A stretch of 64,000 bases of DNA from an uncultured Methanosarcinaceae archaeon (GTDB lineage Archaea; Halobacteriota; Methanosarcinia; Methanosarcinales; Methanosarcinaceae). The position numbers were made by a program, and so were the translations under genes. Of the stretch, positions 2,505 to 60,486 are shown piece by piece. Location: NCBI GenBank assembly GCA_963727895.1, contig CAVSHT010000004.1, forward strand, positions 64,001 to 128,000. Direction: 5' to 3'. Under the pieces are notes generated by a model. It was not told the origin of the DNA, ran no database searches, and was given only the letters and a program-made list of their open reading frames with translations. Numbering within the stretch: position 1 is the first letter of the stretch; the number at the start of each line of letters is the position of its first letter.

Positions 2505-3146
2505 TAAATGGAATAAATATACGAAATTAATAATGTAGGCTGCCGTTTATTTAAGGTTAAAAGGTATCCTCTTCAAATTCAATGGAGAATTTTCCAACTC
2601 GAAAAATGTGCAACAATTTTATCATATAGTTGTAAAGTTGAATGCATTGCTTGATATTGTTTTTTTGACTGGGTTAAATTTTTAAATTTTCAGCAAATAC
2701 ATGAAATTTACTACATGAAATTTACTTTTACCCATACAATTTGAAGAGAATACGAAATTCCTAAAAAATCAAGTACGAAAACCATTGTGGATTAAAGTCT
2801 CGTTTTAGATAGTTAACAGTCTAATGCTGTTGATTTTTCAGTTTAACTACGTAAGTCCTAAAGATTAAAGAAAGCCTGGAAGAGTTTTGTCCCTTTTACT
2901 GTAGCTCCCGATACAGTAACTCCGAAAATCTCCCATCAATATATTCGGATTAGAACGTTTTCCAGGCAATTCTTTCCTTACATATACTACCAGTCACTTC
3001 CCATTTATGTTGATCCGTCCGTTTTGTCTACCGTGGTTTAATCTATTCGCTTCTTGGAATCGATCATATATGGTATAATCCGTTCACTTTGGTCTGTTCT
3101 TTTCAGTTTATAATCTATAATAATTACCAAATTTATTTATAATTAA

Positions 3147-3903
3147 GGCATTGTTCCTTAACTATATCTAGTTCTTTATTTCTGTATTTCATCAATAGAA
3201 TAACCGAGTACTTTAGCATTTCAAGACTTTTTGTATAACACTTTGTCTTTCGTCTCAATCTTGCTAGAAAATGCCTCAATATGCTGTTATATTCCTCAAC
3301 TGTAAATGTTTCTGCTTTTGATTGAGTATGACTCTTTTCTGGAAGAAACTCTGCATATGCTCTCCAGTGATCTGTCATCACTTCTCCAATCTCTTTTTTC
3401 TTCAATTTTTCCCAGAGTAGTTTTCCAGTTTCCGTTCCTCTGCTACCAAAAGAGCAGTTGATGAACTTTTTCCCAACTCTATCAACAGCAATCCAGATAC
3501 AACAGCAATCCAGATACAGCAATATTTTTTTTGTTACCGACGTAAGTGTGCATCTCATCCATTTCAACAATAGATATAGCATTTTCACTTTTTAGATCCT
3601 CTAACTCCTGACCAAATTTCTTTATCCATTTTTGGACAGAAACATGACTTACCCCTAAAACTCTTCCTATTGAGCGGAAGCCCAATCCTTCAAGATAGAG
3701 TTGTAAAGCCTGTCTTTTTACAGAAGCGGAAAAAGCAGTTGATTTTAGCTCTACTGTATAGTTATAGCCACAATCAGAGCATTTGTACCGTTGACGCCCG
3801 CCAACTATACCATTCTTTTTGTGATTGGAACTATTACATTTTGGGCAGTTCACGCAGAAATATATGTTATAAACATATATATCTATTTTTGTTTACCAAT
3901 GCC
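3147..3903 (-). mobile_element. IS1-family element (insA 3482-3853, insB 3133-3588), degenerate
   Basis: InsA zinc ribbon CPKC...YKCSDC plus HTH, and InsB DEMHTY/TDHW DDE motifs. A8 slippery site at the junction, GGCATTG.. termini, and a ~17-bp tandem duplication near 3485-3520. Confidence 0.9.
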
Positions 3904-11981: not shown

Positions 11982-12048
11982 AATTGTGCATTCATTTTAT
12001 TAACTCCTATTCAGTTATACGACTAGTTCAAAACATTTTAAAAAAAAT

Positions 12049-12788
12049 GGTATTTTTAACTAAATATATCTAGTTCTTTATTTCTGTATTTCATCAATAG
12101 AATAACCGAGTACTTTAGCATTTCAAGACTCTTCGTATAACACTTTGTCTTTCTTCTCAACCTTGCCAGAAAGTGCCTCAATATGCTGTTATATCCTTCA
12201 ACAGTATACGTTTCTGCTTTGGATTGAGTATGGATCTTTTCTGAAAGAAACTCTGCATATGCCCTCCAGTGATCGGTCATCACTTCTCCAATCTCTTTTT
12301 CTTCAATTTTTCCCAGAGTAGTTTTTCAGTTTCCGTTCCTCTGCTACCAAAAGAGCAGTTGATGAACTTTTTCCCAACTCTATCAACAGCAATCCAGATC
12401 CAGCAATATTTTTTTTGTTACCGATGTAAGTGTGCATTTCATCCATTTCAACAATAGATATCTCATTTTCACTTTTTAGGTCCTCTAACTCCTGACCAAA
12501 TTTCTTGATCCATCTTTGGACAGAAACATGACTCACCCCTAAAAATTTTCCTATTGAACGAAAGCCCAATCCTTCAAGATAGAGTTGTAAAGCCTGTTTT
12601 TTGACAGAGGCGGAAAAAGCAGTTGATTTTAGCTCTACTGTATAGTTATAGCCACAATCAGAGCATTTGTACCGTTGACACCCGCCAACTATACCATTCT
12701 TATTGTGATTAGAAACTATTGCATCTGGGGCAGTTCATGAAGAAATATATGTTATAAGCATATATGTCTATTTTTTATTACCAATGCC
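12049..12788 (-). mobile_element. IS1-family element, insA frameshifted, with 8-bp target duplication
   Basis: Near-identical to the other IS1 copies, with an extra A near 12712. AAAAAAAT flanks both sides (12041-12048 and 12789-12796). Confidence 0.92.
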
Positions 12789-24352: not shown

Positions 24353-24658
24353 TTAGACTTTCTTAATCACAGTGACCTTGGTAGCAGTAGCATTTTTGCC
24401 TGCTACTGTGGTCTTAGTTGCAGTAGCATTTTTGCCTGCTACTGTGATCTTAGTTGCAGTAGCATTTTTGCCTGCTACTGTGGTCTTAGTTGCAGTAGCA
24501 TTTTTGCCTGCTACTGTAGTCTTAGTTGCACTTTTGATTCCTGAATTACTTTTTTCCGTCTTCGCGTTTATCGTTGCAGCTGTTACTGATAGCACAAATA
24601 AGACTACTAACAAAATAGCTAGTGTCTTTTTTATTCTACCAAGTGTTTGTTTTCCCAT
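24353..24658 (-). CDS. Small secreted Thr/Ala-rich tandem-repeat protein
   Basis: Signal peptide followed by four TK(T/I)TVAGKNATA units (36-bp repeats). Confidence 0.75.
   Translation of the reverse strand: MGKQTLGRIKKTLAILLVVLFVLSVTAATINAKTEKSNSGIKSATKTTVAGKNATATKTTVAGKNATATKITVAGKNATATKTTVAGKNATATKVTVIKKV
24375..24530. repeat. 36-bp tandem repeat, about 4.3 copies
   Basis: TAGTTGCAGTAGCATTTTTGCCTGCTACTGT(G/A)(G/A)TCT, no spacers. Confidence 0.9.
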
Positions 24659-28490: not shown

Positions 28491-29224
28491 GGCTTTGATA
28501 CTTAACTATAATTATTTATTATGAGAACCTCTATTTTTTCATGAACTGCCCCAGATGCAATAGTTCTAATCACAATAAGAATGGTATAGTTGGCGGGCGT
28601 CAACGGTACAAATGCCATGATTGTGGCTATAACTATACAGTAGAGTTAAAATCAACTGTTTTTTCTGCTTCTGTAAAAAGACAGGCTTTACAACTCTATC
28701 TTGAAGGATTGGGCTTTCGCTCAATAGGACGATTTTTAGGGGTAAGTCATGTTTCTGTCCAAAAATGGATAAAGAAATTTGGTCAAGAGTGAGAGAACCT
28801 AAAAAGTGAAAGTGAGATATCTATTGTTGAAATGGATGAGATGCACAATCGGTAACAAAAAAATATTGCTGGATCTGGATTGCTGTTGATATAGCTGGGA
28901 AAAAGTTCATCAACTGCTCTTTTGGTAACAGAGGAACAGAAACTGGAAAACTACTCTGGGAAAAATTGAAGAAAAAATAGATTGGAGAAGTGATGACAGA
29001 TCACTGGAGAGCATATGCAGAGTTTCTTCCAGAAAAGATTCATACTCAATCAAAAGCAGAAACATTTACAGTTGAAGGATATAACAGCATATTGAGGCAT
29101 TTTCTAGCAAGATTAAGAAGAAAGACAAAGTGTTATACGAAGAGTCTTGAAATGCTAAAGTACTCGGTTCTTCTATTAATGAAATACAGAAATAAATAAC
29201 TAGATATATTTAGTTAACAACACC
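28491..29224 (+). mobile_element. IS1-family element, degenerate
   Basis: insA 28541-28792 with a premature TGA, insB fragments, and both termini. Confidence 0.9.
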
Positions 29225-30166
29225 ATATTTCTTTCTTCAAGGATTCAATTTCATTATTGAGATGAGTTATAAGTTTTAGACAGATTTGAAGCCTAAAGAT
29301 AGCACTTTGAGAGATTTCCTTGTTTAGAATCTCTCTAATTTGAGAACTTTTTTTGCGAACATTTGGAGAAAGGCTTTCTATGATTTCATCAATAGCCTTA
29401 CCTGATGTAATTCCAGATAAAATTGCTCTACCATTCTTTCCAAAAATGTCTGTAAGTGTATCCTTTAAATTAAACATTTCAGGAGCAAGAACAGCATGAG
29501 CTTCATTTTTAATATCTGTTCTTTTTTGTACAAGCTCATGACGAAGTCGAACGTATGAACGAAATTCTCTATATTCTTTGGAAAAACTCTTGATGGTTGA
29601 ATCATATTATTCAATGCAAGTTGTGCAATGAATTTTGAGTCTACCTTATCGGTTTTTTTGTGTGTAAAGGCTTTCATATCTCGAGCATTTTCAACTATGA
29701 CAGATAAGTGCTTTATCAAGGAATCATAAATAGGAATCCAAAAATCACTGGTAGATTTACATGCAACAACATTATATTTCTCTGACATAACCAAATTTTT
29801 AAGAGCCAAAATTCCATCTTCATTTTTCTGGAAACGTAACTGCTTTTTTCCCCGGATCTACTCAGGATAGTAGCAATCAAAAAATGCTTATGGATATCAA
29901 GACCACAAGATTTGTTTACAATATCTACCAATTAAAATCACCAAAGTTATTTGGGCAGTGAAATGATCTCAAAGGCAATTTGACATCCGTGATCAAGGTC
30001 ACATTTGAGCCTTCGGCAGCATTTAGTGGTTAGTTTCAGTACGGTTTTGAAAAACCAAAATAAAGACAACCTTACTGCCCAACATTATAAGGGTTTAATA
30101 GTCAAAAAAGAGAAAGGAAAGTACTTTCATGTATTTGTGCCTGTTATTCGAAGAATTTCATGTGTG
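29225..30166 (-). mobile_element. IS110-family element (copy A), transposase frameshifted and 3' end removed by IS1
   Basis: CGLDIHK, AC(K)STS and KKTDKVDS DEDD-type motifs. The ~235-bp non-coding left end is homologous to 58621-58856. Confidence 0.88.
29951..30082 (-). ncRNA. Candidate IS110 bridge/seek RNA (copy A)
   Basis: Closed by a TTGGGCAGT/ACTGCCCAA stem, with internal hairpins and a TATA-like ACTATTAAA upstream. Conserved with copy B. Confidence 0.6.
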
Positions 30167-54033: not shown

Positions 54034-54094
54034 TAATTAAAATGAAATAAAAAATAAGAATATTATAGGCAATTTCATTGGTCATCGGTTAAGG

Positions 54095-57803: not shown

Positions 57804-58123
57804 ATTAGAAATGGAACTTACTCAAAATTGGCTTTGAATATGCTCGTGCACAGCAAACTTAGAAGCTGGCTTACTATCATTGGAATCGTAATAGGAGTTG
57901 GCGCAGTAGTAGGAGGGATAGTCTCTCTGGGGGATGCTATGCAGGCACAGGTGCAAAGCAGGCTTGCAACCTTAGATTTAGCGCACATCACCATCTCACC
58001 AGGATATTCAAGAGCTCAAGCAGGAGGGTTTGGTGGATTTAGAAGAGGAACTACTACAAATGATGTTCAGTTGACAGATAAAGATATTGATGCGCTCCGT
58101 GGTATAGCAGATCTAAAATATAT
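57804..58123 (+). pseudogene. ABC transporter permease (MacB/FtsX-type), truncated by IS1
   Basis: KLRSWLTIIGIVIGVGAVV...SLG, cut off at the IS1 terminus. Confidence 0.88.
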
Positions 58124-58620
58124 GGTATTGTTACTTAAATATATCTAGTTCTTTATTTCTTTATTTCATCAATAGAAGAACCGAGTACTTTAGCATTTCA
58201 AGACTCTTCGTATAACACTTTGTCTTTCTTCTTAATCTTGCTAGAAAATGCCTCAATATGCTGTTATATCTCTCAACTGTAAATGTTTCTGCTTTTGATT
58301 GAGTATGAATCTTTTCTGGAAGAAACTCTGCATATGCTCTCCAGTGATCTGTCATCACTTCTCCAATGTCTTTTTTCTTCAATTTTTCCCAGAGTAGTTT
58401 TCCAGTTTCCGTTCCTCTGCTGCCAAAAGAGCAGTTGATGAACTTTTTCCCAACTCTATCAACAGCAATCCAGATCCAGCAATATTTTTTTTGTTACCGA
58501 CGTAAGTGTGCATCTCATCCATTTCAACAATAGATATCTCACTTTCACTTTTTAGGTTCTCTAACTCCTGACCAAATTTCTTTATCTATTTTTGGACAGA
58601 AACATGACTTACCCCTAAAA

Positions 58621-60150
58621 CGCACATGATATTCTTCGAATAACAAGCACAACTAATGAAAGTACTCTCCGTTCTTTTTTTTGACTATTAAGCCCTCATT
58701 ACCTTGGGCAGTAAGGTTGTCTCGATTTTGGTTTTTCAAAACCGTCCTAAAACTAATCAGTGAATTGCCATCGAAGGCTCAAGTGTGACTTTGATCACGG
58801 ATGCTAAGTTGGCCTTTTAGGCAATTCCACTGCCCAAATAAATTTGGTGATCTAATTTGATTGAAGTCATAAACAAAGCTTGTGGTTTAGACATTCACAA
58901 ACTCTTTTTCATTGCTACAATTCTCAGCAGATCTGGTGAAAAACAACAGCAACGTTTCAACAGAGACGATGAAGGAATTTTAGCCCCTAAAAATTGGGTA
59001 ATATCAGAAAAATGTGATGTTGTTGCATGTGAATCAACCAGCTACTTTTGGGTTCCGATTCATGATTCATTGGTAAAGCATCTAACTGTGATAGTTGGAA
59101 ATGCGCGAGATATGAAGGTATTTACCCATAAAAAACAGATAAAATTGACTCAGAAGTCATTGCACAACTTGCACTTAATAATATGATTCAGCCATCAAGA
59201 GTTTTTCCAAAGGATCATATAGATTTTAGATCATATGTTCGACTTCGGTTAACACTTGTACAAAAAAGAACAGATTTAAAAAATAAAGCTCACTCAATTC
59301 TTGCATCTGAAATTCAATTCTTGCATCTGAAATGCTACACCTGAATAATGTGCTGACAGACGTTTTTGGCAAGAATGGCAGAATGATCTTATTAGGAATC
59401 TCTTCAGGTAAGAGTGTTGATCAGATTATTGCAAGCCTCTCTCCAAATGTTCGGAAAAAAGCTGCTCAGATAAGAGAAATTCTTGATCGAGAAATTTCTC
59501 AAAGTGCTGCATTCAGACTTCAGATCTGTCTGAAACTCATAAAAAGTCTTGATGATGAACTCGAAGCTTTAGAAACAGAAATTTTCAATTATGCTTCTCG
59601 AAATCATAAGCGAGAAATGGAGATTTTAATGTCAGTTCCAGGTATAGGGGAACTTGGTGCGGCAATTTTACTTGCTGAAATAGGCAACTTTAAGGATTTT
59701 TCTTCTGGAAATAAGCTTGCTTCTTGGCTTGGTCTAGTTCCTAATGTGTATCAATCTGCAGATAAATACTATAACGGCAGAATCACAAAGAGGGGATCAA
59801 AAGTAGCAAGGTGGATTCTGACACAGATTGCTCAAGCAGCAGCAAGAAAGAAGAATAGCAGGTTAAAAGAGTTTTTTAACAGAAAAAAGAAGTCGATTGG
59901 ACATGCAAAAACAATTATTGCCTTAGCAAGGAAAATTGCAACGATACTATGGCATCTTATTACAAACGATGAGATGGACGAAGATGAAACCGGATATCAA
60001 AAGGGAGAAATCCAAAAGAGAAAGATTATTGAAACTGAGCTTTTTTCGGTTGATGAACGGATTAAAATAATTAGTGGAATATTTGCGATTATGGGGAAAA
60101 AGGATCAAGAGAGCACGTGAGGATAATCTCCTCATGTACTTTCATGCTAA
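58621..60150 (+). mobile_element. IS110-family element (copy B), full length, transposase frameshifted (58857-60120)
   Basis: CGLDIHK, CESTS, SVPGIG and GLVP..YQSA...G.ITKRGS motifs. Frameshifts at an A run (~59130) and a 20-bp duplication (~59294-59333). Sub-terminal IR ATGAAAGTAC/GTACTTTCAT. Confidence 0.92.
58704..58837 (+). ncRNA. Candidate IS110 bridge/seek RNA (copy B)
   Basis: 9-bp closing stem and two hairpin/internal-loop units whose loop sequences match the insertion site and the element end; TATA-like ACTATTAAG upstream. Confidence 0.65.
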
Positions 60151-60486
60151 ATCATCCTATTGAGCGAAAGCCCAATCCTTCAAGATAGAGTTGTAAAGCC
60201 TGTCTTTTTACAGAAGCGGAAAAAGCAGTTGATTTTAGCTCTACTGTATAGTTATATCCACAATCAGAGCATTTGTACCGTTGACGCCCGCCAACTATAC
60301 CATTCTTTTTGTGATTAGAACTATTACATTTTGGGCAGTTCATGAAGAAATAGAGGTTCTCATAATAAATAACTATAGTTAATTATCAAAGCCTTATTTT
60401 GCATATTTGTTATATTTCTATGAGAAGTATGTTTATCTATAAATAAATTAATATTAACTTGTTAACCAGTAGAAGAGGCGCATGAG

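Follow-up and report, generated by a model that had tools for sequence, protein, structure and literature searches.

Insertion sequences of the IS110 family recombine under the guidance of RNAs that they encode themselves: bridge RNA in the IS110-group element IS621 (Durrant et al., 2024, PMC11208160) and seekRNAs in the IS1111-family elements ISEc11, ISKpn4, ISPa11, and ISPst6 (Siddiquee et al., 2024, PMC11187229). IS1111 seekRNAs lie downstream of the transposase gene and carry the top-strand complement first, whereas in ISEc21, an IS110-type element, the RNA lies upstream and the order is reversed (PMC11187229). Here we analyzed a 64,000-nt stretch of DNA from an uncultured Methanosarcinaceae archaeon (GenBank assembly GCA_963727895.1, contig CAVSHT010000004.1, positions 64,001 to 128,000; hereafter the window, whose positions are used throughout). 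Our analysis indicates that the segment at 58704-58837 is very probably the bridge (seek) RNA gene of a methanogen IS110-family insertion sequence, read in the direction of the transposase gene and guiding recombination. The mechanism is ordinary for the IS110 family; the layout and the host are unusual, and the window copy is decayed. An RNA-guided mechanism of this kind has been known since 2024; it is met here in archaea, with guide segments that stand in a different order.

The element, hereafter copy B, occupies positions 58621-60148 (1528 nt), carries AA on both sides, and lies inside a host IS1-family element, the remaining part of which is found at 60151-60393. It consists of a 236-nt non-coding left end, a transposase gene (58857-60120), and a 28-nt right end. 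These ends were set by aligning 21 full-length copies from the same genome together with their flanks; in copy B, the left flank ...CCCCTAAAA ends at 58620 and the right flank AAATCAT starts at 60149. Contigs from three of four RNA-library runs (X1, X2, and X3) contain the junction 58618/60149, at which 1530 nt are skipped with a 2-nt ambiguity. At the insertion point, the window's uninterrupted IS1-like site has five A's versus four plus three in the filled site. The left end occurs at 24 places in the genome (83–100% identity). Subterminal inverted repeats comparable to those of IS1111 elements flank the junction; read by eye, they are TTTCATG and CATGA[A/T]A (7 bp), joined by a 10-13-bp repeat deeper in the left end. 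The geometry differs, with repeats of 7 bp lying 2 and 4 nt from the core by eye, versus a usual 11–13 bp with extensions of 7 and 3 bp in IS1111 (PMC11187229).

Membership in the IS110 family, as proposed in a first-pass annotation of the window, is borne out by the DEDD transposase encoded beside the RNA segment. A near-intact paralogue (L011:335-1504, 390 aa) matches the NF033542 model 'IS110 family RNA-guided transposase' with 261.3 bits (cut-off 140), PF01548 with 63.5 bits (cut-off 29), and PF02371 with 91.8 bits (cut-off 21.3), and thus scores above all three thresholds. Compared with the IS621 transposase (8wt6), it gives an E value of 3.6e-9, with similarity detectable only in the C-terminal half. 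The window copy is split into three frames (58857-59186, 59183-59344, and 59332-60120) and is not intact. Its fragments match PF02371 with 95 bits and PF01548 with 21.6 bits, the latter falling under the cut-off of 29 because the frame is broken.

Homologues of the segment came from 24 left ends of the same genome, related genomes of the same family, 185,579 species genomes (54 loci), and our own covariance-model scan. Of 151 genomes sampled from the phylum, the RNA model found matches in 11, representing 7 of 62 genera. Over all four sources, the hosts include Methanosarcina species, Methanospirillum purgamenti, Methanoculleus, and Methanoperedens. We drew a structure by hand and counted its support on a MAFFT alignment and on a model-fitted alignment; the latter favours the structure, and the MAFFT figures agree with it. 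In the MAFFT alignment (21 sequences), 88.0% of the cells are paired and 13 pairs show compensatory changes versus 6.7 after shuffling, a value reached in 0 of 500 shuffles. The model-fitted alignment (24 distinct sequences) has 90.2% paired cells and compensatory changes in 20 of 35 pairs versus 9.0 (0 of 500 shuffles), while slid controls pair in 31–53% of cells. RNAalifold run on the raw MAFFT alignment returned just 18 pairs, with the closing stem misaligned in distant sequences, and was replaced. The fold of the single sequence 58690-58860 (z = -2.48), in which the guides are partly paired, is of little use alone. A scan of 58500-60300 against Rfam 15 with E up to 10 gave three chance-level matches, all far under their gathering scores and none within 58704-58837.

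The structure comprises six helices. A closing stem, P1, is formed by TTGGGCAGT (58704-12) and ACTGCCCAA (58829-37), with compensatory changes in 7 of its 9 pairs, and encloses a target-binding module (P2 and P3) and a donor-binding module (P4, P5, and P6). P2 (98% paired) shows compensatory changes in 3 of 5 pairs, contains a G·U pair conserved in 22 of 23 sequences, and surrounds the P3 hairpin, GGTTT..AAACC. Six of the eight P4 pairs are compensatory; P6, the GTGA-N6-TCAC hairpin, is 100% paired, with two compensatory pairs and a U·G pair conserved in 23 of 23 sequences. A structured, covarying RNA gene therefore lies in the non-coding end beside a recombinase gene, as a bridge or seekRNA in the broad sense does. 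As in IS621, the long non-coding left end carries the RNA, ahead of the gene for a recombinase with DEDD and Transposase_20 domains; of the two stem-loops in the RNA, each with an internal loop, one serves the target and the other the donor (PMC11208160). Unlike in IS621, where the 5' stem-loop is separate, a single closing stem encloses both modules, and the RNA core measures about 134 nt rather than 177 nt (PMC11208160).

The conserved G·U pair of P2 and U·G pair of P6 place the RNA on the transposase strand, since the other strand would form A·C mismatches. They also bear on the proposal that the guides act as DNA, with single-stranded left-end hairpins pairing with the target like the subterminal guides of IS200/IS605. 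The same complementarities do exist in DNA, but the wobble pairs fit an RNA helix on one strand only. Moreover, the transposase is an IS110-family DEDD enzyme, and RNA guides have been shown experimentally for that family (PMC11208160, PMC11187229). We therefore give guidance by DNA hairpins hardly any credence.

The loops of both modules contain segments that follow the DNA at the element's borders. The empty site CCTAAAAATCG fits the guide CCTAAAA and the reverse complement of the guide CGATTTT, so that two segments of the target loop (loop 1) are complementary to opposite target strands and overlap at the core. The left flank ends in CCTAAAA, identical to 58746-52, in 18 of 21 main-family copies of the genome, and 14 of 22 right flanks in the genome start with A(A)TC, fitting the complement of 58723-29. 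We scored each guide against the DNA of its own lineage and of other lineages and permuted the lineages. For the 3' strand of loop 1 and its own left flank, the score is 6.34 of 7 positions versus 4.76 when permuted (0 of 100,000 permutations, 16 lineages); for the 5' strand of loop 1 and the core plus right flank, it is 6.63 of 9 versus 5.55 (0 of 100,000, 14 lineages). Individual lineages reach 9/9 in the same scoring of the 5' strand (L030) and 10/11 by eye (L061). The 3' strand of the donor loop (loop 2) matches the mapped right end at 6.86 of 7 versus 5.91 (1 of 100,000, 14 lineages).

An unbiased comparison of all variable RNA columns with all flank positions gave the same picture. Alignment columns 58-61 equal left-flank positions -7 to -4 in 11, 16, 17, and 15 of 17 lineages, and the four best couples between RNA columns and the left flank form one diagonal; for the right end, the strongest couple falls in the donor loop (14/15). 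A boundary-free test of exact 7-mers, to which eight more distant lineages were added, found the donor 7-mer in 19 of 20 own right-end zones versus 82 of 380 foreign pairings, and the target 7-mer in 11 of 23 own upstream zones versus 41 of 506 (0 of 100,000 in both cases). The lineages with exact right-end recurrence carry 11 different donor 7-mers. Overall, the three guide relations change together across 14–23 lineages. On the donor side, it is the right end (left donor) that is matched, exactly so in 19/20 lineages; for the left end (right donor), no covarying segment was found. The methanogen element differs from IS621 in this lack of a detected right-donor guide and in its AA core; the core of IS621 is CT.

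These data confirm what the first-pass annotation observed. The motifs it named are all in place on checking the sequence, and the analysis it proposed, namely aligning homologues, building a covariance model, and comparing guides with flanks, did reveal covariation. Its interpretation of the segment as a bridge RNA is supported by covarying helices and by loop strands that change in step with both flanks and with the right end. It had cautioned that the guide-flank matches were short and A/T-rich; the left-flank match nonetheless exceeds chance (6.34/7 versus 4.76 over 16 lineages, as above). The annotation overlooked both the donor-loop match and the reversed guide order. It had also seen two differently programmed copies in one genome, and two guide variants do coexist here, CCTAAAA in the main family and ACT[A/G]AAA in the family of copy A, each beside a matching flank. 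Copy A has an RNA gene at 29940-30090 on the minus strand (143.9 bits with the RNA model) and a left end at 30166, and the two copies are 89% identical over 315 aligned columns. One correction concerns copy A, whose guide ACTGAAA is one base off its own left flank ACTAAAA (30173-30167; G versus A). In a sister copy on contig C4 (C4_54050, left end at 54050), guide and flank are both ACTAAAA.

The arrangement of the guides combines features of both described groups. As in IS621, both target guides include the core dinucleotide and hence overlap where they meet the target, the 5' guide is the longer one, and the target is a repeated element of the host genome (PMC11208160). The guide order is reversed in both loops relative to the IS621 rule (PMC11208160); as in an IS1111 seekRNA, the top-strand complement lies 5' of the bottom-strand match, again in both loops (PMC11187229). 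This order would be an artefact if the RNA were in fact of the usual IS621 type and transcribed from the other strand, or if left and right had been swapped. The guides are A/T-rich, the A-run at the core permits a 1-nt slide, and the strand itself is deduced. Yet on the opposite strand the conserved wobbles become A·C mismatches, and pairing of the guides would involve the 5' half of either DNA strand, which differs from IS621; left and right are fixed by the direction of the transposase gene and by 21 copies with mapped ends. A misread IS621-type RNA is accordingly a highly improbable explanation.

Another possibility is that the segment acts solely in cis, as a 5' leader through which translation or stability of the transposase mRNA is controlled, with the protein choosing the target and the flank matches being incidental. 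The RNA ends 8 nt before GGTGATC (58846-58852), a candidate ribosome-binding site, and no run of more than three T's separates the RNA segment from the transposase gene; with no T-run terminator before the start codon, the RNA is likely part of the mRNA. In addition, no separate small RNA was seen in the RNA-library contigs. A leader has no reason to track DNA outside the element, whereas these loops track both flanks and the right end over 14–23 lineages, and compensation keeps the stems while the loop strands vary. Furthermore, leader and guide roles are compatible, as a long form co-transcribed with the transposase gene has been described (PMC11187229). A leader and nothing else is therefore very unlikely to be the explanation. 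The bridge RNA probably makes up the 5' portion of the transposase transcript or arises from that transcript by processing.

Upstream of P1, a T-run followed by a TAT-like box is kept across the Methanosarcina lineages inspected, and the T8 run is at a better promoter distance from the closing stem than ACTATTAA, which ends 13 nt before P1. Counted from ACTATTAA, the usual archaeal TATA spacing would place the transcription start within the 5' arm of P1 or beyond it. The sigma-70 promoter that spans the circle junction in IS621 cannot apply in an archaeon.

Several observations weigh against a functional bridge RNA as proposed here. ACTATTAA is too close to P1 to serve as its TATA box if P1 is transcribed, and the start that it would set conflicts with the covariation of P1. 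The four RNA-library runs are available as contigs with possible DNA carry-over, from which transcript start, end, and abundance cannot be read; the sequencing runs found hold 6–9% of sampled words. The 416-aa frame, present in intact orthologues of relatives, is complete in none of the 21 full-length copies of this assembly, which is itself 84% complete. In three copies, the right flank has one A more than every empty site observed. For the right-donor guide, comparing RNA columns with the left end's first 12 nt revealed no diagonal; the top-scoring couple, column 128 and position 2, stands alone. A discontiguous 9-on-7 pairing of 58783-91 with AA plus the first five left-end bases fits copy B; it is not kept in other lineages, being lost in Methanospirillum, Methanoculleus, L092, L116, and L121, and was rejected. 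The right-flank signal is the weakest of the three (best single couple 10/15; main-family guides 5.92/9 on their own flanks versus 5.53 for others). Some copies in this genome carry guide variants that are off their flank (C4_33197 with CATAAAA versus CCTAAAA, and four copies with TCTAAAA). Finally, kinship among the lineages makes the permutation figures look more independent than they are. The donor loop, being passed on along with the right end, is the most affected.

The element boundaries, the empty site, the helices and strand of the RNA, and the covariation of three guide segments, all demonstrated above, can be combined into a model with transcription, protein binding, a circular intermediate, and chemistry that we infer from IS621, ISEc11, and ISEc21. 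As in IS621 and ISEc11, the element would most likely excise as a circle joining right end, AA, and left end. The RNA, bound by the DEDD/serine recombinase, would bring this circle to a matching site, CCTAA-AA-ATCG, with loop 1 presenting two guides that could pair with the target and loop 2 pairing with the circle junction, where its 3' strand would pair with the element's right end plus core. Strand exchange would then take place at the AA core. The features on which this model rests are listed in Table 1.

Table 1. Coordinates of the IS110-family element, its probable RNA gene, and associated features in the window.
Feature	Positions	Strand	Basis
Host IS1-family element, left part	58115..58620	-	Repeat families I2, I9, I25; PF03400 DDE_Tnp_IS1, InsA-like zinc ribbon
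Left core copy AA, last two bases of left target plus core	58619..58620	+	Contig joints, empty site
Left non-coding end (LE), 236 nt	58621..58856	+	21 aligned full-length copies and flanks
Left arm, short subterminal inverted repeat CATGATA (most relatives CATGAAA)	58625..58631	+	Sequence; reverse complement of TTTCATG 60140-46
LE-internal inverted copy ATGAAAGTAC of right-end sequence 60136-60145	58656..58665	+	By eye, unscored
T8 run then TATA-like ACTATTAA (58684-91), candidate archaeal promoter and/or oligo-T stop for read-through	58674..58691	+	Sequence
Probable bridge RNA core, closing stem P1 (58704-12 / 58829-37) around target and donor modules	58704..58837	+	RNA model R1, 167.5 bits
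Target-binding module: outer stem P2 (58715-19 / 58754-58), internal loop, hairpin P3 (58730-43)	58715..58758	+	Covariation
5' strand of target loop; CGATTTT (58723-29) complements top strand of core plus right target (AAAATCG, empty site)	58720..58729	+	Empty site, permutation
3' strand of target loop; CCTAAAA (58746-52) identical to left target plus core, pairs with bottom strand	58744..58753	+	Copies, column scan
Donor-binding module: stems P4 (58762-69 / 58820-27) and P5 (58776-78 / 58812-14), hairpin P6 (58784-99)	58762..58827	+	Covariation
3' strand of donor loop; ATGCTAA identical to last 5 nt of right end plus core (60144-60150)	58801..58807	+	Right-end matches
Shine-Dalgarno-like GGTGATC, 4 nt 5' of transposase TTG start	58846..58852	+	Sequence
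IS110-family transposase gene, broken	58857..60120	+	Three frames; PF01548, PF02371 matches; indels versus relatives
Hairpin overlapping stop codon (TGAGGA / TCCTCA)	60118..60134	+	Sequence
Right non-coding end (RE), 28 nt, including inverted-repeat arm TTTCATG (60140-46)	60121..60148	+	Sequence, aligned copies
Right core copy AA	60149..60150	+	Contig joint, aligned copies
Copy A, diverged IS110 copy, truncated on 3' side at abutting IS1-like element (28491-29233)	29227..30166	-	77% identity over 963 nt

Unlike the RNAs of IS1111 elements, which lie downstream of the gene, as described in PMC11187229, the methanogen RNA lies upstream of the transposase gene, and the stop codon is followed by only 28 nt of the element. 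An RNA placed upstream as in IS110, the guide order of IS1111, and a 7-bp repeat could together define a third architectural type, a reading of the layout that we consider possible but doubtful. On the circle, the order RNA, gene, junction would be that of an IS1111 element whose core has moved from behind the RNA to its front. Durrant et al. proposed a 'translocation of the bridge RNA between ends' (PMC11208160), and an element of this third type, if real, would be a living intermediate of such a translocation that must run on archaeal transcription. If this reading is correct, frameshifted copies (17 of the 21 share one 20-nt duplication) would go on spreading, since each provides its own guide RNA and relies on recombinase made elsewhere, in trans. 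Rare IS1111 relatives with an upstream non-coding region have been noted (ISMtsp17), with no guide analysis in the consulted passages of that paper (PMC11187229).

With regard to earlier records of this family, a supplementary protein table contains a Euryarchaeota cluster with ISMac14, ISMba7, ISMba20, and ISMma5 (PMC11208160), and Methanosarcina IS110 proteins were thus part of the set of Durrant et al. A 2026 bioRxiv survey presents 86 bridge-RNA models from 32,190 loci, with many structures unlike IS621. Our search of the literature on bridge RNA in Methanosarcina or archaeal IS110 elements found no description of this family; the survey may hold it, and the layout may already be catalogued there. 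Plasmid annotations found by tblastn (1875 records) carry either the bare label 'IS110 family transposase' or IS names of unverified subgroup.

IS110-family RNA-guided recombination is under development as a genome-writing tool, and the elements described here offer a natural, well-supported series of re-programmed archaeal guides, with at least 11 donor 7-mers and about a dozen target guides in several genera of methanogens and methane oxidisers. The compact layout of about 134 nt mixes features that separate the IS110 and IS1111 groups and bears on how these groups relate. For the genetically tractable methanogen Methanosarcina, the elements further supply a candidate for a native programmable recombinase.

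The window copy of the transposase gene has two lesions. At 59130-35 it contains an A6 run in place of the A7 of relatives, and at about 59295-59334 it carries a tandem duplication of 20 nt. Because its transposase gene is broken, this copy can supply RNA at best. The extra A is present in relatives from runs X1, X2, and X3, and the duplication is missing from relatives in all four runs. Among the 21 full-length copies, the run is A6 in 6 and A7 in 15, the latter also being the state of relatives from RNA-library contigs; plain decay or a slippage-prone site could account for this difference. An identical frameshifting 20-nt duplication is shared by 17 of the 21 copies. A defective element has therefore multiplied, either mobilised in trans or carried inside IS1 copies.

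The host IS1-family element is abundant, with about 234 copies, fragments, or derivatives in the 3.7-Mb genome; those in the window lie at 3141-3903, 12040-12787, 28491-29233, and 58115-58620 plus 60151-60393. At the IS110 target, the IS1 element has two main site variants, one with four A's followed by CTCTTCC (124 copies) and one with five A's followed by TCGTCC (about 46). The exact empty-site 11-mer has 48 unoccupied occurrences in the genome versus 2.6 expected from composition, and the IS110 element fills 13 IS1 copies. Given that 46 of the 48 empty 11-mers lie in IS1-like copies, the element lives mainly inside another insertion sequence. RNA-guided targeting explains the repeated interruption of this genome's IS1-family elements at one site. 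Copy A is cut off exactly at the end of an IS1-like element (29227-29233) and copy B lies inside one, so that the two insertion sequences interrupt each other. IS110 copies at C4:394533, C11:266262, C3:101625, C9:235776, and others are bordered by an IS1-type flank on one side only, the DNA on the opposite side being unrelated, which suggests rearrangement by recombination between copies.

Additional features were noted at the ends of the element. The inverted repeat 58656-58665 / 60136-60145 is 10 nt long, with its left copy 36 nt inside the left end, and would close a hairpin around the core in any transcript or circle that spans the junction. Judged by eye, it is altered on both sides yet kept in Methanospirillum (L086) and in L092, where it is 13 nt long. 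The hairpin overlapping the stop codon (60118-60134) is kept in Methanosarcina relatives; as a candidate RAGATH-31 member it was rejected (18.3 bits versus a gathering score of 71.8). At L067:2388-2470, two right-end-like termini lie about 24 nt apart, the outer one fitting the locus's own donor loop and the inner one that of another lineage. By eye, the distant lineage L120 (G163:C27) apparently has the core GA rather than AA in both loops and both junctions, and its target looks like a tandem CGCCAAGA-type repeat. Four short contigs binned as bacterial metagenome-assembled genomes (L063, L084, L085, and L091; Oricola, Deltaproteobacteria, and Cloacimonadota) carry the same RNA and a protein 54–84% identical to that of the archaeal element; mis-binning or transfer could explain them. 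Elsewhere in the window, 24369-24548 holds four to five tandem copies of a 36-nt unit (family D12) that is unrelated to the bridge RNA.

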